From an uncultured Clostridia bacterium (GTDB lineage: Bacteria; Acidobacteriota; Blastocatellia; UBA7656): a stretch of 47,594 nucleotides of DNA. The notes below the pieces were generated by a model. It had not been told where the DNA came from. It did no database searches and saw only the letters and a list, made by a program, of their open reading frames with translations. Positions 6,917 to 47,278 of the stretch are shown here, piece by piece. Where the stretch lies: contig CAZOOE010000002.1 in assembly GCA_964581275.1 (NCBI GenBank), positions 1 to 47,594 of the forward strand, in the 5' to 3' direction. Every line of letters begins with the position of its first letter. Within the stretch, counting starts at the first letter, position 1. A program made the position numbers and the translations under genes.

Positions 6917-8437
6917 GTGGGTTTCTCCGCGATAGATTACGTCGTGCTGGTGGGCTACCTGGTGGGCATCACCATATTTGGCACGATGTTTCGGCGTTCC
7001 CGGCGAACGGTCAAAGATTATTTTATAGGCGCGAAGAACACGTCGTGGATTGTAATCAGTCTTTCAATCGTCGCCACCGAAACGAGCACGCTGACGCTGA
7101 TCGGGGTTCCGGCGCTGGCTTACTCGACTTTCGCGCGGCCCGAGCAGGGCGGCAGTCTGACCTACTTGCAGGTTGTCATCGGCTACATCGTCGCGCGAAT
7201 GATCATCAGCTTGCTATTCATCCCGGCTTATTTTCAGGGTGAGCTGCTGACTGCTTATGAGCTGTTGAAGCGCAGGTTCGGAGTGCAAGCAAAGAATTTC
7301 GCGGCTTCTCTGTTCCTGATCATGCGCGCGCTGGCCGAAGGCGTTCGGGTGTTTGCCGCCTCACTTGTTTTGAGCGCGGTGCTCAGCGCGAGTCTTCCCG
7401 GCTTGCCTCATTTATGGCTGTGGTCGATCTTCATCGTCGGGTTGCTGACGTTGATCTACACGTTCGAAGGTGGGATCGCCGCGGTGATCTGGACTGATTT
7501 GATTCAGCTCGTGATCTACATCGGTGGCTCGCTGCTGGCGGCTTACATGCTGCTGCGGTTGATACCGGGCGGATGGGGCGCTGTGGCTGCCGAAGCGGCG
7601 CCGGTAAACAAATTTCAGGTGTTCTCGTTTGCCTGGGATTTCAAGCTGCCGTTTACATTTTGGGCTGGGTTGTTGGGCGGCACCTTTTTGACCATGGCAT
7701 CGCACGGCACTGACCAATTGCTGGTTCAAAGGCTGCTTACGTGCCGTAACGCGCGAGACAGCCAGAAGGCTTTGGTGCTGAGTGGGTTTGTAGTGCTCTT
7801 TCAGTTCCTGCTCTTCTTGATCATCGGCATAATGCTTTTCGCTTACTACAGGTTTTATCCGCTCGAGACGCAGCTTGCAAGCAACGACGAGATTTTTCCC
7901 GCGTTTATCGTTCATCGCCTGCCGCACGGCGTGGCGGGTCTAGTGATCGCGGCGATATTTGCGGCGGCGATGTCGAATCTGAGCGGCTCGCTGAACTCGC
8001 TCGCGTCGACCACCGTGCTTGATTTCTACAAGCCGCTTGCCGGTCGAAACGCGAGCGACGAGAGTTTGTTGAAGCTGTCCCGATGGCTGACGGCAACTTG
8101 GGGCATAGTCCTGATCGGCATCGCGGTACTGGCGAGCAGATGGGGATCAGTTTTTACGACTGGTTTGACGATCGCGTCGCTGGTCTACGGACCGATGCTC
8201 GGGGCGTTTCTCTTGGGAGTTCTCACGCGGCGAGCGAATCAAGCTGGTGTAATGATTGGGATGGGGGTCTCTCTGGTCTCAATGCTTGCAGTGAAGTTCT
8301 TCACGCCGCTCGCCTGGACCTGGTATGTGCTGGCAGGGACGGCGGTGTGTTTGATGATTGGTTACGCGGTGAGCCTTATGACAAAGCGGCCGGCTGATGT
8401 GGCGTCGTTTGAAGAGGCGGCTGCCGCGACCGATTGA
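6917..8437 (+). CDS. Sodium:solute symporter (SSS) family transporter
   Basis: About 13 hydrophobic segments. An SSS-like N-terminus (DYVVLVGYLVGITIFGTMF...DYFIGAKN) is followed by TETSTLTLIGVPA. GTG start. The stop overlaps the next ORF. Confidence 0.85.
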   Translation: MGFSAIDYVVLVGYLVGITIFGTMFRRSRRTVKDYFIGAKNTSWIVISLSIVATETSTLTLIGVPALAYSTFARPEQGGSLTYLQVVIGYIVARMIISLLFIPAYFQGELLTAYELLKRRFGVQAKNFAASLFLIMRALAEGVRVFAASLVLSAVLSASLPGLPHLWLWSIFIVGLLTLIYTFEGGIAAVIWTDLIQLVIYIGGSLLAAYMLLRLIPGGWGAVAAEAAPVNKFQVFSFAWDFKLPFTFWAGLLGGTFLTMASHGTDQLLVQRLLTCRNARDSQKALVLSGFVVLFQFLLFLIIGIMLFAYYRFYPLETQLASNDEIFPAFIVHRLPHGVAGLVIAAIFAAAMSNLSGSLNSLASTTVLDFYKPLAGRNASDESLLKLSRWLTATWGIVLIGIAVLASRWGSVFTTGLTIASLVYGPMLGAFLLGVLTRRANQAGVMIGMGVSLVSMLAVKFFTPLAWTWYVLAGTAVCLMIGYAVSLMTKRPADVASFEEAAAATD

Positions 8438-8448
8438 TATCGGAGATT

Positions 8449-11002
8449 ATGGTAGCAAACGAAACGGCTATTTCAAGCCAAAGCGTCATTCCCAGACGGA
8501 CCGCTTTTCTCGTTTGTTTGACGCTTCTGCTTCCGTTGCCTCTTCTGGCTGAACGCCCCGACAGGGCTTCGCATAAAGAACCATCCCCGAGACTCACGAC
8601 GGCGACCCCCGAATCAGTCGGCATGTCCAGCGAGCGACTCGGCAAGATCGATGAAGCTGTGCTTGCGTCGATCGAGCGCAAAGAGACGCCGGGCGCGGTC
8701 GTGCTCGTCGCTCGAAAAGGCCGCATCGTTTATAGAAAAGCATTTGGCGATCGCGCTATCGAGCGGAAGCGTGAGGCGATGACGGTTGATACCATCTTCG
8801 ACCTCGCTTCACTGACTAAAGTAGTCGCCACTGCCACGTCGCTGATGATCCTTGTCGAGCGCGGCAAGATCAGTCTTGCCGGATCCTGTCGCGCTCTAAA
8901 TTCCCGAATTCGGAAAGTTCGGCAAAGAGCGAATCACGATCGAGCAGTTGATGACCCATCGCGCGGGATTGCCGCCGGACAACGAGATTTCGGACTACGT
9001 TGGAAAGACGGTGGACCCGCTCCCGATGATCTACGAATTGCGCCCCAGCTACGAGCCGGGCAAGCGATTCATCTACTCAGACGTGGGGTACATCGTTGCC
9101 GCCGAAATAGTCCGTCGAGTGTCTGGCAAACGGATCGACGAGTTCGCCCGCGAGCAGATCTTCTTGCCGCTCGGGATGAACGACACTTGGTTCAACAATT
9201 CAGAGCTTGTGAAGGCTGTTCTTGCTCTCCAAGGTCAATTGGGGAGGTTCGACCTTTCCGATGCGGCCTACGCGTTTATTGGCCGGATCAAGCGAACCGC
9301 CCCAACCGAAAACCGTGAAGGCAGATGGATGCGAGGTGAAGTCCACGACCCGCGAGCTTACGAGATGGGCGGGGTCGCCGGACACGCGGGTCTGTTTTCA
9401 ACGTCCGATGATCTGGCTATCTTCTGCCAGATGATCCTCAACAAAGGTGAGTACAACGGCGTTCGCATTCTTGCGCCCTATACCGTCGAGCGAATGGTGA
9501 GCGCGCAAACCCTTCCGACCTCTCAGATGCGAGGCATCGGCTGGGACGTCAATAGTTCGTACTCCTCGAATCGCGGAGACCTCTTTCCCGTGGGCACGTT
9601 TGGCCACACTGGTTTCACCGGCACCAGCATCTGGCTCGATCCTGCGAGCGAGAGTTTTGTAGTTCTATTGACAAATCGCGTTCACCCGAACGGCAAGGGC
9701 GATGTCACGCGACTACGCTCGTTCGTAGCCTCAATCGTCGCCGGCGCGATTACCGAGCCTCCCCACGCACCGGTGATGTCGCACCTCGATGCGCCTCCGG
9801 CTTATGTCGATGCGCCGCGCGCGGTGATCACACGAGGTGTTCCGTCGGGGCCGCTTCATCCGGTGTTGACGGGACTGGATGTTCTAGAACGCGATGGATT
9901 CAAACAGCTCGAGGGCAGGCGGATCGGTTTGATAACGAATCACACCGGCCGGGATGCAAAAGGCCGTTCGACAGTTGACGTTTTGGCGGGCGCTAAGAAC
10001 CTGAAGCTCGTAGCTCTGTTTTCCCCTGAGCACGGCCTGCGTGGAGCCGAAGACACCACCGTCGGCGACACCCGCGACGAAAAGACCGGGCTGCCGGTCT
10101 ACAGTCTTTATGCGAAAGACCGCCGGCGGCCGGCGCCGGATACGCTGAAAGACATCGACACACTGGTGTTCGACATTCAAGACGTCGGCGCTCGTTTCTA
10201 CACCTACCCGGCGACCTGCGGCTATGCGATGGAAGAGGCCGCGAAGAATAAGATCAAGTTTGTGGTGCTCGATCGTCCGAATCCGATCAACGGCTATGAT
10301 ATCGAGGGACCGGTCGCTGATAGAGATCTCACGGAGCAGCCGTCTTTTTCATTCACTTCCTATCACCCGGTACCGGTGCGCCACGGAATGACGATCGGCG
10401 AGCTTGCGATGCTGTTCAACTCCGAGCGCGAAATCGGCGCCGATTTGACGGTGATCAAGATGGAGGGCTGGCGCCGGGCAGACTACTTCGACGGCACGGC
10501 GCTGACGTGGGTGAATCCGTCGCCGAACATGCGCAGCCTGACTGAAGCCCAACTTTATCCCGGCATCGGGTTGCTCGAGACCACGAACTTGTCAGTCGGG
10601 CGGGGAACGGACACCCCGTTCGAGGTGATCGGTGCGCCTTGGCTGGATGGTCCGCGGCTGGCTGAGGCGCTCAACCGTGCCGGATTGTCAGGAGTCAGGT
10701 TTGTGCCCGTAGGATTCACGCCGAAATCATCAAAGTTTGCGAATGAAGAGTGTGGTGGAGTGAACATCGTGATCACCGATCGGGGAGCTTTCCATCCGGT
10801 CGCAGCTGGCATGGAGATCGCTTATCAGCTGGGCCGGCTCTATCCAGGTACGTGGAAGGTTGACGATTACATTCGCTTGCTGGTCAATCGCGTTACGCTT
10901 GCGGCCCTCAAGGAAGGAAAGACTGCTTCCCAGATATCCGCGACGTGGCAAGAGGGGCTGGCGCAGTTCGCTCGCATCAGGCAGAACTATTTGATCTACT
11001 GA
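8449..11002 (+). pseudogene. Disrupted fusion gene: beta-lactamase-family serine hydrolase domain plus DUF1343 (NamZ-like exo-beta-N-acetylmuramidase) domain. It is broken by a 1-nt frameshift (~8879) and an in-frame TAA (8897..8899).
   Basis: Frame 1 gives a signal peptide and the SxxK motif (FDLASLTKVVATATSLMILVERGKISLA), then degenerates. Frame 2 continues the family sequence as DPVAL*IPEFGKFGKERITIEQLMTHRAGLP...YSDVGY...GHTGFTG, followed by the DUF1343 region (GLITNHTGRD...LFSPEHG...FDIQDVGARFYTY...LDRPNPING). Confidence 0.7.
8948..11002 (+). CDS. Intact downstream ORF of the split gene: C-terminal two-thirds of the beta-lactamase-like domain plus a complete DUF1343/NamZ-like domain
   Basis: A 684-codon open frame with TTG/ATG at 8948/8951. 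It would lack the signal peptide and the SxxK nucleophile if expressed alone. Confidence 0.6.
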   Translation: MMTHRAGLPPDNEISDYVGKTVDPLPMIYELRPSYEPGKRFIYSDVGYIVAAEIVRRVSGKRIDEFAREQIFLPLGMNDTWFNNSELVKAVLALQGQLGRFDLSDAAYAFIGRIKRTAPTENREGRWMRGEVHDPRAYEMGGVAGHAGLFSTSDDLAIFCQMILNKGEYNGVRILAPYTVERMVSAQTLPTSQMRGIGWDVNSSYSSNRGDLFPVGTFGHTGFTGTSIWLDPASESFVVLLTNRVHPNGKGDVTRLRSFVASIVAGAITEPPHAPVMSHLDAPPAYVDAPRAVITRGVPSGPLHPVLTGLDVLERDGFKQLEGRRIGLITNHTGRDAKGRSTVDVLAGAKNLKLVALFSPEHGLRGAEDTTVGDTRDEKTGLPVYSLYAKDRRRPAPDTLKDIDTLVFDIQDVGARFYTYPATCGYAMEEAAKNKIKFVVLDRPNPINGYDIEGPVADRDLTEQPSFSFTSYHPVPVRHGMTIGELAMLFNSEREIGADLTVIKMEGWRRADYFDGTALTWVNPSPNMRSLTEAQLYPGIGLLETTNLSVGRGTDTPFEVIGAPWLDGPRLAEALNRAGLSGVRFVPVGFTPKSSKFANEECGGVNIVITDRGAFHPVAAGMEIAYQLGRLYPGTWKVDDYIRLLVNRVTLAALKEGKTASQISATWQEGLAQFARIRQNYLIY

Positions 11003-11233: not shown

Positions 11234-14200
11234 ATGACGATAAGAGTCATCAAGCTACTTCGTCTGGTGATGTTGCTGCTGATATTGGGCGGCGCCTCTC
11301 TTGCAGCATCGGCGCAGGACGTCACCGCTAGCATAACAGGGTTTGTCACTGATACTGCTGGAGCCGTAGTGACTCACGCAGCAGTGACGGTCACAAACAG
11401 TGCTACAGGTGAGCAGCGAAAGGCAACCACCGATGATAACGGTCAGTACACCATCGCGTCGCTCTCTATTGGCACCTACACCGTGGTTGTCGAGCAGACG
11501 GGCTTCAAAAAGTACATCCAAGAAAACATAGTACTGCACGTCAATGACAAGACGCCGGTAAATGTCCAGCTCGAGGCGGGGAGCGTCCAAGAAACGGTGA
11601 TGGTGTCCGCGGGAAGCTCTCTGGTTAAGACAGAGACGCACACAGTTGAAGGACTGCTTACCGGCGAGATGATACGCGAGCTACCGCTGAACAACCGGAA
11701 CTTTGCGCAGCTCACTCAGGGTGTGCCGGGTGTTTCGTCCACTCAGGGAAGCACGGTAAACTTCGGCGGATTGTCGACCGTTGCAATCTCGATCAATGGC
11801 AGCCGGACAACCGCAATCAACTGGAGCATAGATGGATCACGCAATGTAGACACCGGTTCCAATGCCACTCTGTTCAACTATCCGAGCGTGGACGCCATTG
11901 CGGAATTCAAAATCCTGACTAACTCCTACGACGCGCAGTTTGGGCGTAACGCAGGCGGGGTGGTCAATGTCGTGACCAGAAGCGGGGGCAAGGCCTTCCA
12001 CGGAGGGCTCTATGAGTTCGTGCGCAACGACGTACTCCAGGCGCGTAACCCATTCCAAACGACACCGCTCAGGGGCCTGAGCCCAAATGACTGCTTCACC
12101 GAGGCTCACCCTGAGAACGACGATCGATGCAAATACAAAGGTCCTCTGCGCTACAATAACTTCGGCTACAACGTAGGCGGCCCGGTGTGGATACCTGGGA
12201 TCTACAGCAGAGGCCACGACAAAACCTTCTTCTTCTTCTCCGAAGAATTCCGCCGGCAGCGAGGAGTTAGCGTTCTCTCCGGTCTGTATCCGACCGACGC
12301 ACAGCGCAGGGGCATATTCACCACTCCAATAAAGGATCCGACGACCGGGCTGAATTTCACCAACAACACGATCCCCGACAATCGCATCGATGCGAATGCA
12401 AAAGCGATAATCGCAAACTTTATGCCGCTGCCCAACTCGCCCAGTGAGGGTCCGAACAACTTCAGGACCGTCGCATCAAGCCCGGCGGATTTTCGTCAGG
12501 AACTGCTCCGAGTTGATCACAATTTCAACGATAACTGGAGAATCTGGGGTCGCTATGTTCATGACGTTACCACAACCGTGGAGCCGGGCGGACTGTTTAA
12601 CGGGCTGATCTTCCCCGGCGTGGCGACTACCGCTACCACTTCACCCGCTGACAACGTGGTCGTCAGGCTCACGACCGTGCTTTCGCCAACGCTACTCAAC
12701 GAAGTTGGATATGATTACGCACGCAATGCAATCACAAGCGTTCTGACCGGCAACGCGCTCCGGTCAAATTTCCCGGACATCAAGATTCCCGAGATCTTTG
12801 ACGGAAGCCCAAGTGGCGGGTTACCAGCCGTCGCCATCACCGGATTCAGCAGCCCGCTCGGAGTTCTGGCGCCCTTCCAGAACGACAACCCGAGTCACAC
12901 AATTTCTGACAACCTGACCTGGAGCCGAGGTGCCCACACGCTCAGGGTAGGCGGCCTGATTTCGTTTGAAGCAAAGAACGAGAACTCGCAGGGAGCGTCC
13001 ACACCCGGCAGCTTCTCTTTCACCGGCAACACTACCGGCAATGCTGTGGCGGACTTCTTACTGGGCCGCGCCAGGAGCTACACCGAAGACCAGACGGATG
13101 TCACTGTGCACGAGCGGTACAGGGCCTTTGAATGGTACGCACAGGACACCTGGAAGGTGAGGCGAAACCTAACGATCGACCTCGGAGTGAGGCATTCAAT
13201 CTTCGGCAACCCCTACGACAAGAACAATATTTTGATTTCTTTCCTGCCTCAACTGTTTGATCCGGCCAAGGCGGTGACGCTTAATCCGGCGGCGGGCGCT
13301 CTGAACGGCACGATCATCCCCGGTAGCGGTGATCGGTTCAATGGGATCATCTTCGCGCGTGATAACTCTCCCTATGGCAAGTACGTGCAGAGCAGCACAT
13401 ACAACACTATAGGACCGCGCATTGGGTTTGCGTGGGATCCGTTTAATGATTCAAAGATGGCAGTGCGCGGAGGCTTCGGGGTCTACTACGACCGCAGCCT
13501 GATAGGCATTGTCGAGCAAAATGGATTTGCCGATCCGAAGGCGAACCAGAGGGTGAGCATCGATAACACCTTCTTGAGCAATCCTACCGGAGGCGCGCCC
13601 AACACGTCGATCTTCCCGCTTGGGCTTACTGCGACTGGCGATCCCTTCAAGATACCGACTACGATTCAATGGTCGCTCGGAGTCCAGCGCCAGCTGACTA
13701 AGGATACTGTGTTCGAGCTCACCTACGCAGGCTCTCACGGTTATCACCTGTTGCATCAATTCCAATTGAACCAGCCGCGTCCGCTGGTTGCTGCCCAAAA
13801 GGGGGGTGTGGGTCTGAATTTCGTCAGGCCGTTTGTCGGCTTTGCCGGCATCAACGTGCGAGAAACGACTGCCAACTCGAGCTACAACTCGTTCCAGGCA
13901 TCGTTCCGTAAGCGTTTGAATCATGGACTGCTGTTCAACGGTTCATACACCTTCGCCAAGACTCTGACGGATTCTTCAGATGACCGGGGCAACACGCCTC
14001 AAAACAGGCTCGACTACAGAAGCGAGCGTGGCCCGGCGGCCTTCCAGCGTGCTCATGTGGTGAATCTGAGCTACCTATGGGAGGTTCCTTTCCCGAAGGA
14101 TGCCCCTGCTCACCTGAACGCCGTTCTTGGAGGCTGGCAAATCGCCGGCGCGACCTTCTTCTGGAGTGGCCTCCCGCTAACCGTGACCCAGGGCGGAGAC

Positions 14201-14584
14201 TTGCTTGGAACAGGCGGCAACACCAGACCCAACTTGATCGCTAATCCGGACGGTCCGGAGACGATAGCCCAGTGGTTCAACACCGCGGCATTCGCGGCCG
14301 CCACCACCAATTTCGGCACCGCCGGGCGAGGAATCATCATCGGACCTGGAGTTCACAACTGGGATATTTCACTGGTCAAGAACTTCCGCTGGCGCGAGAA
14401 TCTGAGGTTGAGATTCAGCACAGACTTCGTCAATGCATTTAACCACTCGAACCCGGGCAACCCGAATGTGGCGCCTACCTATGACGCCGCCACGCTCAAA
14501 CAGACGAACACCAACTTTGGAAAAATCACTGCCTTGAGCCGCGACCCGCGAATCATCCAGTTCGGGCTCAAGTTCAATTTCTAA
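11234..14584 (+). CDS. TonB-dependent receptor with N-terminal carboxypeptidase-regulatory-like domain
   Basis: Signal peptide is followed by ITGFVTDTAGAVVTHAAVTVTNSATGEQRKATTDDNGQYTIASLSIGTYTVVVEQTGF (CarboxypepD_reg-like). A plug-like region (ELPLNNRNFAQLTQGVPGV) comes next, then a long beta-barrel ending in the aromatic terminus FGLKFNF. An RBS (ggagga) lies upstream. Confidence 0.9.
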   Translation: MTIRVIKLLRLVMLLLILGGASLAASAQDVTASITGFVTDTAGAVVTHAAVTVTNSATGEQRKATTDDNGQYTIASLSIGTYTVVVEQTGFKKYIQENIVLHVNDKTPVNVQLEAGSVQETVMVSAGSSLVKTETHTVEGLLTGEMIRELPLNNRNFAQLTQGVPGVSSTQGSTVNFGGLSTVAISINGSRTTAINWSIDGSRNVDTGSNATLFNYPSVDAIAEFKILTNSYDAQFGRNAGGVVNVVTRSGGKAFHGGLYEFVRNDVLQARNPFQTTPLRGLSPNDCFTEAHPENDDRCKYKGPLRYNNFGYNVGGPVWIPGIYSRGHDKTFFFFSEEFRRQRGVSVLSGLYPTDAQRRGIFTTPIKDPTTGLNFTNNTIPDNRIDANAKAIIANFMPLPNSPSEGPNNFRTVASSPADFRQELLRVDHNFNDNWRIWGRYVHDVTTTVEPGGLFNGLIFPGVATTATTSPADNVVVRLTTVLSPTLLNEVGYDYARNAITSVLTGNALRSNFPDIKIPEIFDGSPSGGLPAVAITGFSSPLGVLAPFQNDNPSHTISDNLTWSRGAHTLRVGGLISFEAKNENSQGASTPGSFSFTGNTTGNAVADFLLGRARSYTEDQTDVTVHERYRAFEWYAQDTWKVRRNLTIDLGVRHSIFGNPYDKNNILISFLPQLFDPAKAVTLNPAAGALNGTIIPGSGDRFNGIIFARDNSPYGKYVQSSTYNTIGPRIGFAWDPFNDSKMAVRGGFGVYYDRSLIGIVEQNGFADPKANQRVSIDNTFLSNPTGGAPNTSIFPLGLTATGDPFKIPTTIQWSLGVQRQLTKDTVFELTYAGSHGYHLLHQFQLNQPRPLVAAQKGGVGLNFVRPFVGFAGINVRETTANSSYNSFQASFRKRLNHGLLFNGSYTFAKTLTDSSDDRGNTPQNRLDYRSERGPAAFQRAHVVNLSYLWEVPFPKDAPAHLNAVLGGWQIAGATFFWSGLPLTVTQGGDLLGTGGNTRPNLIANPDGPETIAQWFNTAAFAAATTNFGTAGRGIIIGPGVHNWDISLVKNFRWRENLRLRFSTDFVNAFNHSNPGNPNVAPTYDAATLKQTNTNFGKITALSRDPRIIQFGLKFNF

Positions 14585-14606
14585 CCAAGTGCTTCAATTG
14601 ATGCAG

Positions 14607-14646
14607 AAACTCGGATCGTTCACAAAAGGGCGGTCCGAGTTTTTTT
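14607..14646 (+). terminator. Rho-independent terminator after the TonB-dependent receptor
   Basis: A 9-bp stem (aaactcgga / tccgagttt) with an 18-nt loop is followed by a run of T to 14646. Confidence 0.65.
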
Positions 14647-14672
14647 GTAAAGTGACACACGGCGGTCTTCTC

Positions 14673-16364
14673 ATGAGAGTAGTGTTTGTCTTGGTCACGG
14701 CATGCGTCCTTGTGTTGTCTCATATCGCCAGTTCCGGAGTGGATACGCGCTTCCATTTTGTTGATGCAACGACTGAGTCGGGGCTCGCCTCGTTTCACCA
14801 TCAGAGCGGCAACCCTCGCGAGAAACGTTACATACTCGAGGTAATGTCGGGAGGAGTGGCAATATTCGATTATGACAATGACGGACTTCCGGATATTTAC
14901 TTAGTCAATGGTTCTACCCTTGACGTACTGCGCGGAAAAGTTAAGCCGGATCTGAATGCGCAGTCCCGGCTCTATCACAATCTAGGCAATGGGAAATTCG
15001 AAGATGTTACAGATCGAGCAAGGGTCGGCAACATTGGGAATTGGGGTATGGGAGCCTGCGCAGCCGACTACGACAACGACGGTCGCACGGACCTGTTCGT
15101 GACCAATGCCTTCAGCCGCAATGTGCTTTACCACAACAACGGCGATGGAACGTTCACCGATGTGACCGCGAAGACTGCAATCGGAGGTGACCCCAGCCGT
15201 TGGAGCACGGGTTGTGCCTGGGCCGACTATGACAACGATGGCTATGTTGACTTGTTCGTTGCAGGCTATGTTGATCTCGACTTGAACAACCTGCCCGATC
15301 CGGGGACCAACAAGTTCTGTCGCTACCGCGGGCTGCCGGTCAATTGCGGGCCGCGCGGGCTCAAAGGCGCACGCGATTACCTCTACCACAATAACGGCGA
15401 TGGATCGTTTACTGAAGTGGGGGCGAAGGCCGGCGTGGATGACAAGGTCGGCTACTACGGTCTCGGTTGCGTTTGGTCCGATTTCGATAATGATGGGCTA
15501 ATTGATCTGTACGTAGCGAACGATTCGACGCCGAACTATCTCTATCACAACAATGGCAACGGGACCTTCAAAGAAATCGGTTTTGACGCTGGAGCAGCGG
15601 TCAGTGAGGACGGTCGGGAGCAAGCTTCGATGGGAGTTGATGCGGCAGACTACGACGGCGATGGCTACTTCGACATATTCACTACCAATTTTGTTGACGA
15701 CTACAGCACGCTCTATCACAACGAGGCGGGAAAGGAATTCACCGACGCGAGCAATCCGGCAGGACTCGCGGCGCCCGGATGGAACTTCCTGAAGTGGGGG
15801 ACAGGCTTTGTGGATTTCGACAATGACGGGCGTCTGGATATCTTCGTAGCTAATGGACATATCTACCCGGAAGTTGAGGGAAAGGGATTCGGGCAAACCT
15901 TTGGCCAGCGCAACCAGCTCTTTGAAAATATAGGAGAGGGTCGGTTCAGCGAAGTGAGCGAAGAAACACTAAACAAGATTCTGAAGGTCAGCCGTGGCGC
16001 AGCCTTCGCAGACCTTGATGGGGATGGACGCGTGGACGTAGTCATCAACAATCTGGACGATCAGCCAACCGTCTTACTCAATCGCAGCGCAAGCGGAAAC
16101 TGGATAGAGTTAAAACTGGTCGGCCGCACCAGTAATCGCGATGCGATCGGCGCCCGAGTGACGATTACCGCCGGCGGAAAAAGGCAGGTGGCAGAGGTAA
16201 GGGCAGGGCACAGCTATCTCTCCCAGAGCGATCTTAAATTGCACTTCGGGCTTGGAGTGGCAAGGAAGATTGAAGCCATCGAGATTCGGTGGCCTCGCGG
16301 CCGAGCGCAGAAGCTGAGCGATGTGGCACCAAACCAGGTGTTGAGAATAGAAGAGCAAAGGTAA
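14673..16364 (+). CDS. CRTAC1-family protein (FG-GAP/VCBS repeats plus ASPIC/UnbV C-terminal domain)
   Basis: Repeated D.DNDG..D(I/L)(F/Y)V.N motifs occur at least 7 times. The C-terminal region (NRDAIGARVTITAGGKRQVAEVRAGHSYLSQSD) is typical of ASPIC/UnbV. The start was moved to the ATG at 14673 (MRVVFVLVTACVLVL signal) because the track start at 14589 lies inside the upstream terminator. Confidence 0.85.
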   Translation: MRVVFVLVTACVLVLSHIASSGVDTRFHFVDATTESGLASFHHQSGNPREKRYILEVMSGGVAIFDYDNDGLPDIYLVNGSTLDVLRGKVKPDLNAQSRLYHNLGNGKFEDVTDRARVGNIGNWGMGACAADYDNDGRTDLFVTNAFSRNVLYHNNGDGTFTDVTAKTAIGGDPSRWSTGCAWADYDNDGYVDLFVAGYVDLDLNNLPDPGTNKFCRYRGLPVNCGPRGLKGARDYLYHNNGDGSFTEVGAKAGVDDKVGYYGLGCVWSDFDNDGLIDLYVANDSTPNYLYHNNGNGTFKEIGFDAGAAVSEDGREQASMGVDAADYDGDGYFDIFTTNFVDDYSTLYHNEAGKEFTDASNPAGLAAPGWNFLKWGTGFVDFDNDGRLDIFVANGHIYPEVEGKGFGQTFGQRNQLFENIGEGRFSEVSEETLNKILKVSRGAAFADLDGDGRVDVVINNLDDQPTVLLNRSASGNWIELKLVGRTSNRDAIGARVTITAGGKRQVAEVRAGHSYLSQSDLKLHFGLGVARKIEAIEIRWPRGRAQKLSDVAPNQVLRIEEQR

Positions 16365-35330: not shown

Positions 35331-38009
35331 TCACTCGCTGCGCAGCGCCAGCATCGGATCGATCGACGTTACGCGGCGCGCAGGAACAAAGCAGGCTGCT
35401 GCGGCGACTGCCATCAGCACCAACGCAACTGAGAGGAACGTGATCGGATCGGTCGCCTCCACCGCAAACAACAACGACGACATCAGCCGTCCAAGGAGCA
35501 GCGCTCCACCAAGACCAACCGACAAGCCCAGCACCACGAACGACATACCCTGTCGCATTACCATCCCGAGCACTTTCCCGGGCGTCGCGCCAAGAGCAAG
35601 CCGAACGCCGAGTTCGTGAGTTCGTTGGTTCACAGACAGCGCCATGACACCAGCGATTCCAGCCGCGGTTATCACGAGCGCGAGTCCTGCGAACATCGCC
35701 AGGAGAATGGCGGTCAATCGAGGCGAGGCCACCGCATCGCTGCGAACCTGCTCGAGGGTTTGAACCCGATCAACTGCCGTATCCGGATCAAACGCGTAAA
35801 CATCTTCGCGCATCAGCTTCGCTATGCTCATCGGATCGGCAGCGGTCCGAACGAGCAAGTTGTTGCCGAACTGTGCCTGAGCGACAGGGACATAGATCTC
35901 ATCAGTTGGGTCGCGATCCAACCCGTACTGTCTGACGTCACCCACTATACCGACTATGGTCAGCCATGTTTGACCACGGTCCAACGAAATGCGCCGGCCG
36001 ATCGGATCTTCATCGCCCCACCGGTGACGGGCGGTTGCTTGATTGATGACCGCTACCAGAGGTGCCTCGTCCTTATCGCCCTCTGAGAACGTGCGTCCCC
36101 GCACGAGCGGCTGGCGAACGGTCTCGAAATAGTCGGTGCTTGCGGTCCGCAAATCGCCCTGCGGCGCAAGCTCTCCTTGAGGGATCGGGTGGCCTTCGAT
36201 CTCAAAGCCCCGATTGAAAGGGCCGTTCGTGATTCCCAACTGGTTCAGCGGGAATGTTGAGCCTAACGCTGCCTGCAACACACCGGGCTCGGACCGGACC
36301 CTGTCGAGTATCCGAAGCAGAAGCGAGCGGGTTTCCTGCGGTGCGTTGTATTTGGACCAGTTTGGACTGATCCTCATCGCCAACACTCTCTCCGGATCAA
36401 AGCCAGGATTCACCTGCTGCAGCTTTATCAGGCTTCTGAGCATCAGCCCGGCCCAGATCAACAGAACGAACGAGACGCCCACCTGCGCGACGATCAAAAA
36501 GTTCCGCACACGCTGTCTCTTCAGCCCGGCGCTCGATCTACCGCTTCCTTCCTTGAGCGCGCCGCTCAAGTTTTGATCGGAGGCGAAGGCAGGCATCAAT
36601 CCGAATACCAGTCCGGTTGCGACGGAGATCAGCAGCGTGAACAGCAGTACCAGACCGTCGATTCTGATTTCAGCGGCCCGTGTCGTAAACCTGGCCGCGA
36701 AGCTTATGAGAAGTTGCAAACCTCCCGCGGCCAGCAGCAAGCCCAGCGCCCCGCCTCCTAGCGACAACAACGTGCTCTCCGTCAGCAACTGGCGAATGAG
36801 TCGTCCGCGTCCGGCGCCCAGGGCCGAGCGAATGGCCATCTCGCGTTCGCGGCGCATCAGTCTCGCGAGAGTAAGGTTCGCAACGTTGGCGCAGGCAATC
36901 AATAATACTAGCCCTGCGGTTCCCAGTAATATCAGAAAGGTTGGTTTGGCGCGGCGCGTCAACTCTTCTTGCAGCGAAATGACGCTGGCGGCGTAACCTC
37001 TGTTTGCCGGATATGAGTCCGGATACTGTTTCTGCAAGTTGCTGGCGAGCGTTGTCAAATCGGCCTGAGCCTGGGTGACCGGAAGGCCCGATTTCAGACG
37101 GCCGAACACGCTCATCATTCGAGAGTTTCGATCAGCCTTGAACTGCTCGGACGCGCGTGTCGGACACTGGGTAGTCGGCATGTACACGTCCTGTTCGACC
37201 GGGTACTGAGGTATCGGCGGCAGAACGCCGACCACCGTGTGCGGCCTGTTGTTCATCTGGAAAACTCTGCCCACGATGCCCGGATCGCCGCCATGGCTCT
37301 GCCGCCAGTACTCGTAGCTCAGTACGAGAACGGCATCGGACCCAGGTTCTTCATCGGCAGCCACAAATGTTCTTCCCAGGAGCGGTTTCACCCCAAGCAC
37401 ATCGAAGAAGTTCGCGGACACGACTCCGGTCTGGACGCGTTGCGCTTCCTTGCCGCCCAGAAGAGTGAAGCTCATCGAGTGATGCTCCACTACCGCGTCG
37501 AGGGTTTGGTTCTGCTCGCGGTAGTCCTGCACTTCTTTGACTGAGAACGGCACGTTGAGGACGTGAGCAAGCGGAGCTTGTTGTTGGACTATGACCAGCT
37601 GGTTTCCATCTTTGTAGGGCAGCGGTTTCATCAACACGCCATAAATCACGCTGAAGATCGCGGTGTTGGCTCCGATCCCAAGCCCCAGCGTCAATACGGC
37701 GACGATGGTGAATCCAGGATTGCGAAATAAGATCCGTACGCCGTAACGAACGTCCTGCAAGATCGACTCAGCAAGAGGGGCGCCGCGAACGTCGCGGCAT
37801 TCCTCCTTGAATTTTTCAACCCCGCCAAATCTCAGCAACGCCTCGCGACGTGCTTCCGGGAGGCTCATACCGCGCCTGACGTTTCCTTCAATCTCCATCT
37901 CCAGGTGGAAACGCAGTTCTCTATCCATGTCCTGCTCGTCCTTGTCCTTATGAAGAAGAGCGCGCACGTAGCTTGATAGTTTCCTGAACATCGACGCATC
38001 CTCCGGCAA
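35331..38009 (-). CDS. ADOP-family duplicated orphan permease (two MacB-like periplasmic domains plus FtsX permease modules)
   Basis: The N-terminal permease-prefix helix (DMDRELRFHLEMEIEGNVRRGMSLPEARREALLRFGGVEKFKEECRD) is followed by two TM-MacB_PCD-FtsX units. No ABC ATPase gene is adjacent. The start may instead be the second Met at 37991. Confidence 0.9.
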   Translation of the reverse strand: MPEDASMFRKLSSYVRALLHKDKDEQDMDRELRFHLEMEIEGNVRRGMSLPEARREALLRFGGVEKFKEECRDVRGAPLAESILQDVRYGVRILFRNPGFTIVAVLTLGLGIGANTAIFSVIYGVLMKPLPYKDGNQLVIVQQQAPLAHVLNVPFSVKEVQDYREQNQTLDAVVEHHSMSFTLLGGKEAQRVQTGVVSANFFDVLGVKPLLGRTFVAADEEPGSDAVLVLSYEYWRQSHGGDPGIVGRVFQMNNRPHTVVGVLPPIPQYPVEQDVYMPTTQCPTRASEQFKADRNSRMMSVFGRLKSGLPVTQAQADLTTLASNLQKQYPDSYPANRGYAASVISLQEELTRRAKPTFLILLGTAGLVLLIACANVANLTLARLMRREREMAIRSALGAGRGRLIRQLLTESTLLSLGGGALGLLLAAGGLQLLISFAARFTTRAAEIRIDGLVLLFTLLISVATGLVFGLMPAFASDQNLSGALKEGSGRSSAGLKRQRVRNFLIVAQVGVSFVLLIWAGLMLRSLIKLQQVNPGFDPERVLAMRISPNWSKYNAPQETRSLLLRILDRVRSEPGVLQAALGSTFPLNQLGITNGPFNRGFEIEGHPIPQGELAPQGDLRTASTDYFETVRQPLVRGRTFSEGDKDEAPLVAVINQATARHRWGDEDPIGRRISLDRGQTWLTIVGIVGDVRQYGLDRDPTDEIYVPVAQAQFGNNLLVRTAADPMSIAKLMREDVYAFDPDTAVDRVQTLEQVRSDAVASPRLTAILLAMFAGLALVITAAGIAGVMALSVNQRTHELGVRLALGATPGKVLGMVMRQGMSFVVLGLSVGLGGALLLGRLMSSLLFAVEATDPITFLSVALVLMAVAAAACFVPARRVTSIDPMLALRSE

Positions 38010-45404: not shown

Positions 45405-46100
45405 CTATATCGATGTGTCCTTGCCGTTTGATCCCACTGCCGCCCGGACGTGAGCCAGGAATTCAGCCTCAGGCAGCGCTCCGACGAACTCGGTTGTCTC
45501 ATTGATCACGATCTTGGGCACGCCCCTCACAGCGTATCGGCGCGAGAGATCTGGAAACTCCATTGCTTCGATAACATCAGCCGTTACCTGTTCGCTCTCA
45601 ACCGCCATTTGGTGGGCCAACCTGGCCGCTGCCGGGCAGTAGGGTCAGGTGGGTGTCGTGAAGACCTTGATGTGCACATCCCTGGTGAGCGCGCTCAGGA
45701 ACTCTCGCGTCTCCTCCGAAAGATCGGTGCTACCAGTGGAGGCATCAACCAGATCGGCGATCAGAGCGGAGAACTCATAACCCGATGGTATGCCGAAGAA
45801 CCGCACACGGCCACGCGATGCTCCTTTGAAGATAAAGGCCGGCACACGGTCGATGCCAAGCGCCAAAGCCTCCTCTTTCGCGCTGGAGATGTCGTGCACG
45901 GTCAGCTTCAATTTCGCTGAAAGCGAAGCAACTTCCTCGAGAAGTTCCTCGGTCTGACCGCACATCTCGCAAGGCTCCCTTCCCGGAATGATGATCGGCG
46001 ATTCGCGCTCGGTGAACATAACGATCTCGACATCGCCGCTCAGGCTTTCGTCAAAGTGTGTTCGTATCGTCTCCCGGTCGTCTTCGGCTATGAGTGCCAT
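45405..46100 (-). CDS. Two-domain thioredoxin-fold protein disulfide oxidoreductase (PDO / glutaredoxin-like domain protein) with an in-frame TGA at 45645..45647 read as candidate selenocysteine
   Basis: Track ORFs 45645..46100 and 45405..45620 are in the same frame, separated only by the TGA and 8 sense codons. Read-through gives ...HIKVFTTPT-U-PYCPAAARLAHQMAVESE...VRGVPKIVIN.... The N-terminal half has the equivalent CEMC motif. An RBS (ggaggg) lies upstream of the ATG at 46100. Confidence 0.6.
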
Positions 46101-46132
46101 TGTCCCTCCAGATTAAGTTTGTAGCACAGTCT

Positions 46133-46381
46133 TCAAGCGGAGGCTTGTGACGACAGAAAACGCTGCCGTTGGACCAGTCGCCTGAGGTTACAAACTTCCC
46201 GCCTGAAGGAACTCGCATCGGTTCCTATCAAATCCTCAATCTTCTCAGCCAGCGCGAAGTCGTACCCGGTTATACCTCCGGTGGCGTGGGTCCAATTCCT
46301 CAGAAGCACCTGGTTGTTATGAATGACGATATCCGGGGTCTCGAGCAATCGCCACTCTCGCAGATCGGCCCGAAGAACCAT
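46133..46381 (-). CDS. Small hypothetical protein, probably co-transcribed with the oxidoreductase
   Basis: An 82-codon ORF with a good RBS (gggagg, 8 nt upstream of the ATG at 46381). It ends 32 nt before the oxidoreductase start. No recognisable motif. Confidence 0.35.
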   Translation of the reverse strand: MVLRADLREWRLLETPDIVIHNNQVLLRNWTHATGGITGYDFALAEKIEDLIGTDASSFRREVCNLRRLVQRQRFLSSQASA

Positions 46382-46534
46382 TGTGTTACCTCCCTCAGGC
46401 CCGAGTCAACCTCTGCGCCATACTCGCAGAAACCGGCGCGCTCGAGTTGCCCTGACATCGCTGAAACCTTTCGAACTGTCCTGCCACTCACTGGCGTAAC
46501 AGTAGTGAAAAGGTTCGGGAGGAGTTCACCAACT

Positions 46535-47278
46535 ATGAACAAAAAACTAATACGATTTTCCCTTGCGACCGCGCTGGTCGGATTTGCGCTGGCTGCTACC
46601 GCTTCCGCACAGGACTTTCAGAAAGCCTATCGGATCGGCGCAGGCGGCCAGATTCGAATCAGCAATATTTCAGGCGATGTGATCGTGACCGGCTACGACG
46701 GTGATTCGGTCGTGGTCAGGGGCATAAAGAAAGGGCGCGACCGCGACCAGATTGAGATCGAAGACCGCAGCGGCACCGCCAACGTAGATGTCGGAGTACG
46801 ATATCCAAAACACTGCAACTGCGATGCAAGCGTTCGCTTCGAAGTGCAGGTGCCTCGGTCGGTGAACTACGAGTTCGATCAGATTTCTTCAGCGAGTGGG
46901 GATGTTAAGGTGACCGGAGTGACCGGCAAGCTGCACGCTTCGGCGGTTAGCGGCGACGTTCACATTACCGACGTATCGGGATCCGTGAGCGCCTCGGCGG
47001 TGAGCGGTGACGTCAAGGTCGAAATAAACCGGCTTGATGGCTCCGACGACATGAAGTTCTCATCGGTTAGCGGCGACGTAAGCGTAATGCTCCCAAATAG
47101 CCTTGATGCGGATGTAGATATGTCGAGCTTTAGCGGTTCGATCAAGACTGACTTCGCGATCGAGGTTAAGTCGGAACGTTATGGCTCGCGGAACTCGGCT
47201 CGCGCAAAGCTTGGCGACGGGTCGCGGCGACTGAAGATGTCATCGGTGTCGGGCGACCTCAGCTTGCGGCATCCGTAG
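46535..47278 (+). CDS. DUF4097-like putative adhesin / beta-helix repeat protein, secreted
   Basis: The ATG at 46535 is preceded by gggaggag. Signal peptide MNKKLIRFSLATALVGFALAATASAQ. Repeated S(V/A)SGDV.V units occur at least 7 times. The track start at 46169 is an unsupported extension. Confidence 0.75.
   Translation: MNKKLIRFSLATALVGFALAATASAQDFQKAYRIGAGGQIRISNISGDVIVTGYDGDSVVVRGIKKGRDRDQIEIEDRSGTANVDVGVRYPKHCNCDASVRFEVQVPRSVNYEFDQISSASGDVKVTGVTGKLHASAVSGDVHITDVSGSVSASAVSGDVKVEINRLDGSDDMKFSSVSGDVSVMLPNSLDADVDMSSFSGSIKTDFAIEVKSERYGSRNSARAKLGDGSRRLKMSSVSGDLSLRHP

Follow-up and report, generated by a model that had tools for sequence, protein, structure and literature searches.

We analysed a 47.6-kb stretch of bacterial DNA (positions 1 to 47,594 of contig CAZOOE010000002.1, assembly GCA_964581275.1; hereafter the window) and found that two minus-strand open reading frames (ORFs) at 45405..46100 very probably constitute a single gene. 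This gene would encode a 231-residue selenoprotein of the protein disulfide oxidoreductase (PDO) type, with selenocysteine (Sec) in place of the first Cys of the C-terminal CPYC motif (U152-P-Y-C155). A preliminary description of the window had proposed one selenoprotein rather than two ORFs. This proposal is now backed by a Cys/TGA column across homologues, by coding selection downstream of the TGA, and by a conserved, covarying hairpin.

Re-translation of the minus strand, on which all elements of the gene lie, gave one frame from an ATG at 46100 to a TAG at 45405..45407, with a single internal stop, the TGA at 45645..45647. The two ORFs had been described as one frame broken by one TGA, and the same coordinates were recovered. 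In the mechanical ORF list, the N-terminal half of the joined frame appears as a 151-residue ORF (45645..46100) and the C-terminal half as a 71-residue ORF (45405..45620) opening on an internal TTG at 45620. The complete recoded coding sequence, delimited by translation and by the family and structure alignments presented below, has 231 codons, with the presumed Sec at codon 152. Its product counts 231 residues (151 + Sec + 79), in line with the earlier estimate of about 231. The sequence around the stop reads ...DVHIKVFTTPT-[TGA]-PYCPAAARLAHQMAVE..., and the C-terminal redox motif U152-P-Y-C155 occupies 45636..45647. An N-terminal redox motif, C44-E-M-C47, was found at 45960..45971 (IIIPGREPCEMCGQ), where the first half of the protein had been said to carry CEMC. 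A G-V-P-K loop (45513..45524), at the cis-proline position of the second thioredoxin fold, sits opposite the U-P-Y-C site; by analogy with the family its proline would adopt the cis conformation. The gene is preceded by a predicted ribosome-binding site, GGAGG (46105..46109), 4 nucleotides before the ATG (tggagggaca, then atg).

When Cys was put in place of the TGA, the joined protein matched NCBIfam family TIGR02187 at 259.2 bits (cutoff 185, E 2e-77), residues 6-220 aligning with profile positions 2-208 of 209. The name of this model, PDO_seleno_TRX, itself flags selenoprotein members. Pfam Thioredoxin_3 matched the protein in two stretches. Alignments to PDB structures covered residues 1-221, the best being those to the PDOs of Pyrococcus horikoshii (1J08, E 7e-44) and Pyrococcus furiosus (1A8L, E 8e-41). 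Both place the TGA opposite the leading Cys of the C-terminal CPYC (Cys146 of 1A8L by our own count), CEMC opposite the N-terminal CQYC, and the GVPK loop opposite AVPK. Weaker PDB matches were to the Aquifex and Aeropyrum PDOs and to the AhpF N-terminal domain, and the match to TIGR00411 (MJ0307 family, single-domain thioredoxins) stayed below the cutoff at 86 bits. Among homologues, C44 and C47 were invariant in alignment A1, and a regular-expression search found CxxC at the N-terminal site in 77/80 loci of the genome scan described below. We conclude that the predicted gene product is a two-thioredoxin-fold PDO of family TIGR02187, with a fold that, by homology, should be like that of the AhpF N-terminal domain. 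The TIGR02187 and PDB matches thus agree with the initial assignment to two-domain PDO or glutaredoxin-like proteins with CPYC in the second domain.

If the joined frame is translated through the TGA, its homologues should show a column of Cys and TGA at this position. A database search returned 4859 homologues at E <= 1e-10, and detailed counts were made on the best 120 of these 4859. Sixty-seven of the 120 end at about 151 residues, that is, are cut at the TGA codon, with a terminal FTTP[T/N/S/G/P]. The remaining 53 are full-length, and a motif search placed Cys at the aligned position in 50 of them. In alignment A1, Cys stood opposite the TGA in 16/16 full-length homologues. We then read the codon directly from DNA, taking one genome per species, which yielded 80 loci. 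Codon 152 was TGA in 26 and TGC or TGT in 54 of these species-representative genomes, and TAA or TAG in none. The expected column was therefore found.

The TGA hosts comprise Blastocatellia and another Acidobacteriota metagenome-assembled genome (MAG), Bryobacteraceae, Bacillota, Gemmatimonadota, Thermoleophilia, Rokubacteria/Methylomirabilota and Ignavibacteria, together with Ktedonobacteria and other Chloroflexota, including SAR202 and Dehalococcoidia. Within the 80-genome sample, every archaeal member carries Cys and Sec forms occur only in bacteria. On a neighbour-joining tree (loci L002-L081), the window gene belongs to a mostly-Sec clade of Blastocatellia, Ktedonobacteria, other Chloroflexota, Bacillota and Gemmatimonadota, and five further Sec lineages are scattered among Cys relatives outside this clade. 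Such a distribution implies that several independent Cys/Sec switches probably took place. The combination of scattered Sec lineages and a mostly-Sec clade matches what has been described for thiol oxidoreductase selenoproteins, namely repeated conversion between Cys and Sec.

To the evidence from the codon itself is added that from the sequence beyond it. The 66 codons following the TGA were compared with those of eight acidobacterial orthologues, seven of them from Blastocatellia. Substitutions at codon positions 1/2/3 numbered 55/38/258, placing 74% at third positions. Synonymous to non-synonymous codon differences were 198:85 after the TGA, against 330:208 in the 100 codons upstream, so that the coding signal is stronger beyond the TGA than before it. 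None of the eight orthologues has an extra stop before the conserved C-terminus, and the position of the C-terminal stop is kept. The frame after the TGA evolves as coding sequence, under purifying selection.

The mRNA downstream of the UGA contains a candidate Sec insertion sequence (SECIS). Its apical hairpin, GGCC-AGGUU-GGCC (45615..45627), has four G-C pairs and an optional A-U closing pair, leaving a loop of AGGUU or GGU. Numbered from the U of UGA, nucleotides 21-24 (GGCC) pair with nucleotides 30-33 (GGCC) around the loop A25-G-G-U-U29, with G27/U28. Re-counting reproduced the stem, the loop and the GU at nucleotides 27-28 of the preliminary description, and the G23/U24 it quoted for the Escherichia coli fdhF loop was checked and is correct. 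In the preliminary description this short hairpin had been judged only suggestive. It now proves to be conserved with covariation in TGA forms, to be missing from most Cys forms, and to fit the bacterial SECIS (bSECIS) consensus.

The comparison was made between 27 TGA (Sec) sequences and 54 Cys sequences. RNAalifold predicted the hairpin at nucleotides 21-24/30-33 for the Sec set and no consensus structure for the Cys set. Paired cells in the hairpin reached 90.8% in the Sec set, against 9-54% when the partners were slid; the observed covariation score was attained by 0/500 shuffles, and slid controls scored lower. The outer pair 21:33 joins synonymous third positions of Ala codons: in the Sec set it is GC in 17 sequences, AU in 5 and CG in 1, and in Cys forms the same sites pair at about chance rate. 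All four stem pairs are complete in 21/27 Sec forms versus 9/54 Cys forms. Of the 27 Sec forms, 13 have AGGUU as the loop, and column 26 is G throughout. In the divergent Sec lineages (Thermoleophilia, Methylomirabilota, SAR202, Ignavibacteria) the sequence differs, and the hairpin still lies 17-22 nucleotides past the UGA with a G in the first loop positions.

These features were set against the bSECIS consensus model of Zhang and Gladyshev 2005, as summarised in PMC13188914. The model specifies a loop of 3-9 nucleotides, an upper stem of 4-16 bp, a distance of 16-37 nucleotides from UGA to apical loop and a minimum free energy of <= -7.5 kcal/mol, with a G in the first two loop positions and a loop pattern N1-G-[G/U]-N-N2 in which N1 and N2 can pair (PMC13188914). 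In the window gene the loop is AGGUU (5 nucleotides) on four G-C pairs, or GGU on five pairs; it follows the pattern as A-G-G-U-U, A and U being pairable, and begins 21 nucleotides after the UGA (22 with the A-U pair counted). In our own implementation, 27/27 Sec sequences passed the four published bSECIS criteria, as did 29/54 Cys sequences. A SECIS scan had been suggested at the outset, by bSECIS search or by covariance model; the former was positive in this implementation and the latter, with Rfam models, recovered no SECIS family.

The hairpin also leaves a trace in the protein. Residue +7 past Sec/Cys (codon 159, GCC, 45624..45626) is Ala in 21/27 Sec forms; in Cys forms it is Val in 52/54 and Ala in 2/54. 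Since the GCC codon of this Ala supplies three stem nucleotides, the intragenic SECIS appears to dictate the amino-acid change. A possible extension of the element (45601..45640) would add a lower helix of ACUGCC (45635..45640) with GGCGGU (45601..45606), with a centroid fold of -14.7 kcal/mol. This helix (nucleotides 8-13 with 42-47) is 87-88% paired in Sec forms and 76% in Cys forms; it does not discriminate between them and may simply follow from the conserved YCP...MAV codons.

Two Cys-form genes, one from a Ktedonobacteraceae genome (L013, TGT) and one (L086 859-1554, protein P0001, TGC) whose product is 81% identical to the window protein, keep the hairpin codons GCN GCC AGG YTG GCC. They look like recent Sec-to-Cys conversions with a fossil SECIS.

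Several observations weigh against the selenoprotein interpretation. The hairpin alone folds at -6.2 to -7.4 kcal/mol, and the -7.5 threshold is reached only with flanking pairs (-14.7 to -15.7). Single-sequence folding past the UGA was no better than that of shuffles (z = 0.0, +0.4), and support for the hairpin hence comes from comparative data only. Rfam detected no SECIS family in the whole window at the gathering threshold, and at E <= 10 only chance miRNA matches in 45500..45720; this negative carries little weight because bacterial SECIS elements are too diverse. The stem is made of Ala codons in a conserved peptide, and its conservation is partly at the protein level. Neither the 47.6-kb window nor the fetched flanks yielded selA, selB, selD or tRNA-Sec: ARAGORN detected no tRNA at all, either in the window or in the 27 TGA-form loci, tblastn searches of the window and fetched loci with SelA, SelB and SelD of E. 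coli gave only two weak AIRS-family matches beside Cys-form genes, and Pfam scans of 29 large window ORFs showed no SelA, SelB or SelD domain. Finally, the family is classed as predicted with high confidence, not verified, and has no member with experimental selenium incorporation (reviews PMC9312934, PMC13188914). Some Acidobacteria are reported to have selenoproteins (PMC1794560). From this report and from the selectively maintained TGA and hairpin, we infer that the source organism possesses Sec decoding machinery.

If Sec is inserted by the standard bacterial pathway, a ribosome arriving at UGA-152 would meet the hairpin at 45615..45627, 21 nucleotides downstream within the coding sequence, serving as a bacterial SECIS. 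The hairpin would recruit SelB-GTP-Sec-tRNA(Sec), and Sec would be delivered in competition with RF2. By homology with PDOs and the AhpF N-terminal domain, Sec152 should sit at the N-terminal end of the second thioredoxin fold's active-site helix and face the VP loop. There it could act as the nucleophile on substrate disulfides and form a selenenylsulfide with Cys155. The oxidised site might be re-reduced by an NAD(P)H-dependent flavoenzyme of thioredoxin-reductase type encoded elsewhere, and CEMC of the first fold may constitute a second, less reactive redox centre.

The alternative that survives best, though improbable, is that the UGA is decoded by an opal-suppressor tRNA inserting Cys, Ser or another residue, giving a full-length protein without selenium. 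The candidate suppressors are an acidobacterial allo-tRNA whose acceptor branch is 8/4 or 9/3, and a tRNA-Cys of the selC* type mimicking tRNA-Sec. Acidobacteria do carry unusual tRNA-Sec-like allo-tRNAs that are possible nonsense suppressors, and in other phyla selC* tRNA-Cys, which mimics tRNA-Sec, may be an opal suppressor inserting Cys at UGA (PMC5389517). Cys would moreover be tolerated at the site, close relatives having TGC or TGT there. However, selC* is not reported in Acidobacteria (PMC5389517), TGA forms occur in about eight phyla without reported suppressors of this kind, and the Sec trait itself is common among bacteria. With a general opal suppressor, the 17 ordinary TGA stops of the window would be read through as well, and the conserved hairpin agrees with a SelB-dependent SECIS consensus. 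It is improbable that, in the Blastocatellia-like lineage, a hairpin-marked UGA is read by a non-canonical tRNA to give a PDO with Cys or Ser. Genome-wide reassignment of TGA was ruled out, as TGA terminates 17/31 ordinary window ORFs and is their commonest stop. A mechanical scan of the window for other in-frame TGAs gave 76 sites; as far as inspected, these lie in alternative frames of real genes, without homology support.

Less probable still is a nonsense mutation at codon 152 that left a 151-residue N-terminal domain, with the rest of the gene decaying. Public annotation agrees with such a truncation, listing 151-residue entries under 'thioredoxin family protein' or 'AhpF' and, in L087, calls of 151 and 67 residues; the window also holds at least one genuinely broken gene (8434..11002, see below). 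A decaying gene would not, however, show TGA in 26 species of many phyla and never TAA or TAG, nor 79 stop-free downstream codons with an excess of synonymous changes and a conserved C-terminal stop. The conservation of the TGA and the coding selection downstream effectively refute this explanation.

About equally remote is a split gene, in which two polypeptides are made and associate non-covalently, the second starting from the TTG at 45620 or from an ATG three codons on (the Met of AHQM). The TTG is indeed present, and single-domain thioredoxins of a similar type exist (MJ0307 family, TIGR00411). Yet a product from 45620 would miss a beta-strand and the entire U/C-P-Y-C site that follows it, 45620 has no evident ribosome-binding site ahead of it, and the codons between TGA and TTG are under coding selection, PYCPAAARLAH after the TGA being conserved as protein. 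Least probable of all is a sequencing or assembly error: one base separates TGA from TGC or TGT, and the close Cys-form relative P0001/L086 has TGC, but error is rejected because an independent assembly (GCA_016853205.1, L001) is identical over 550 nucleotides including the TGA (99.6% identity over the 1.86 kb it has in common with the window), the same truncation recurs in dozens of independent metagenomic contigs, and both the SECIS hairpin and the Val-to-Ala substitution accompany the TGA.

The reading of 45405..46100 as one selenoprotein gene has consequences for the annotation of the family. Truncated entries in NCBI and JGI (P0010-P0120) are named 'thioredoxin family protein', 'glutaredoxin-like protein' or 'alkyl hydroperoxide reductase subunit AhpF', and in one locus (L087 10001-10696) the second half is called as a separate 67-residue ORF. 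Public annotation is thus systematically wrong, the active-site domain being left uncalled or made a separate 67-residue ORF, and its correction is the main practical consequence of this work. The data also illustrate cleanly how a SECIS within a gene can constrain the protein, a Val-to-Ala change supplying a stem codon, with fossil SECIS hairpins remaining in what look like recent Sec-to-Cys revertants. In this part of the family the Sec form is no rarity; most members of a clade of soil Acidobacteriota and Chloroflexota carry it, which bears on the debate whether Sec use is disfavoured in aerobes. More speculatively, the Sec trait of aerobic soil Blastocatellia and Ktedonobacteria could be sustained mainly by this Sec-PDO clade.

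The surroundings of the gene were also compared. Its neighbours encode a DUF4097 protein, a pterin-4a-carbinolamine dehydratase, an acyl-CoA dehydrogenase and an SDR protein, in an order that is syntenic within Blastocatellia. With MAG CAVTUR01, identity is 81% for the PDO and 89% for the acyl-CoA dehydrogenase. The dehydratase gene (46133..46381, minus strand, 82 residues) directly precedes the PDO gene and is co-oriented with it. It is overlapped by a mechanical ORF of 369 residues on the plus strand (46169..47278), which is over-extended; the real DUF4097 ('toastrack') gene has about 247 residues according to the gene call in L001. The neighbourhood comparison revealed no redox partner, reductase gene or sel gene beside the PDO and gave no clue to its substrate.

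Elsewhere in the window, gene content is typically acidobacterial, with a GC content of 56.9% and best synteny and identity to Blastocatellia MAGs. Other features include a CarboxypepD_reg TonB-dependent receptor (11234..14584), an FG-GAP/ASPIC protein (14589..16364) and a duplicated MacB/FtsX permease (35331..38009). At 8434..11002 on the plus strand, a gene fusing beta-lactamase-like and NamZ (exo-beta-N-acetylmuramidase) parts is broken. Its beta-lactamase Pfam match spreads over two ORFs that overlap in different frames; the frame changes near 8880-8900, and the conserved 'DPVAL*IPEFGK' contains an in-frame TAA. It is a pseudogene or an assembly error, within what looks like a cluster for scavenging N-acetylmuramic acid and peptidoglycan (BadF/BcrA-type ATPase, SSF symporter).

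Among proteins of solved structure, the best matches of the window protein are the PDOs of hyperthermophiles (PfPDO 1A8L, P. horikoshii 1J08, Aquifex aeolicus 2AYT/2YWM, Aeropyrum pernix 2HLS), to which it aligns over its full length with E 7e-44 to 3e-28. It shares with them two (here predicted) thioredoxin folds, the N-terminal CxxC and the VPK cis-Pro loop, and their C-terminal CPYC corresponds to UPYC here, the solved structures carrying Cys at the UGA site. The window protein differs from them by an insertion of 8-9 residues before the first CxxC, and it lacks their short second-domain insertions. The AhpF N-terminal domain (1ZYN, 1HYU, 4O5Q; E 1e-7 to 5e-6) has the same double thioredoxin fold with a redox-active CxxC in the second fold. 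AhpF, however, has lost the first-fold CxxC, whereas the window protein retains CEMC, and the window protein has no fused flavoprotein reductase domain and scores far below the AhpF cutoff (TIGR03140, 66 bits against 503). No ahpC was found among the window ORFs.

As for the RNA element, the SECIS of E. coli fdhF is likewise an intragenic hairpin that follows the UGA directly on its 3′ side and carries GGU in a small apical loop. The sequences are GCA-GGUC-UGC in fdhF and GGCC-A-GGU-U-GGCC in the window gene, and the loop GU lies at nucleotides 23-24 in the former and 27-28 in the latter, four nucleotides farther from the UGA. In contrast to fdhF and the bSECIS model, the upper stem of the window gene has only 4-5 bp and no bulged U, and no Rfam model detects it.

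Finally, TIGR02187 with UxxC is an already listed selenoprotein family (PMC1794560; reviews PMC9312934, PMC13188914), whose Sec form was initially described from Carboxydothermus hydrogenoformans and Symbiobacterium thermophilum, the two members known in 2006 (PMC1794560). The window gene adds an acidobacterial member to this family. It has in common with the 2006 proteins the TIGR02187 match, Sec as the first residue of UxxC, one Sec per protein, a SECIS inside the coding sequence just past the UGA, and widespread Cys homologues, and it shows every computationally testable feature of the family and of a bacterial selenoprotein gene. A literature search for selenocysteine in Blastocatellia gave no result. 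The 2006 reports concerned thermophilic anaerobes, whereas the host here is a Blastocatellia-like acidobacterium; and against the two Sec members known then, Sec forms were found here in 26/80 related species genomes, most of them from a single clade of soil Acidobacteriota and Chloroflexota. Novelty is confined to the Blastocatellia-like host lineage and the dominance of the Sec form in a large clade of soil bacteria.

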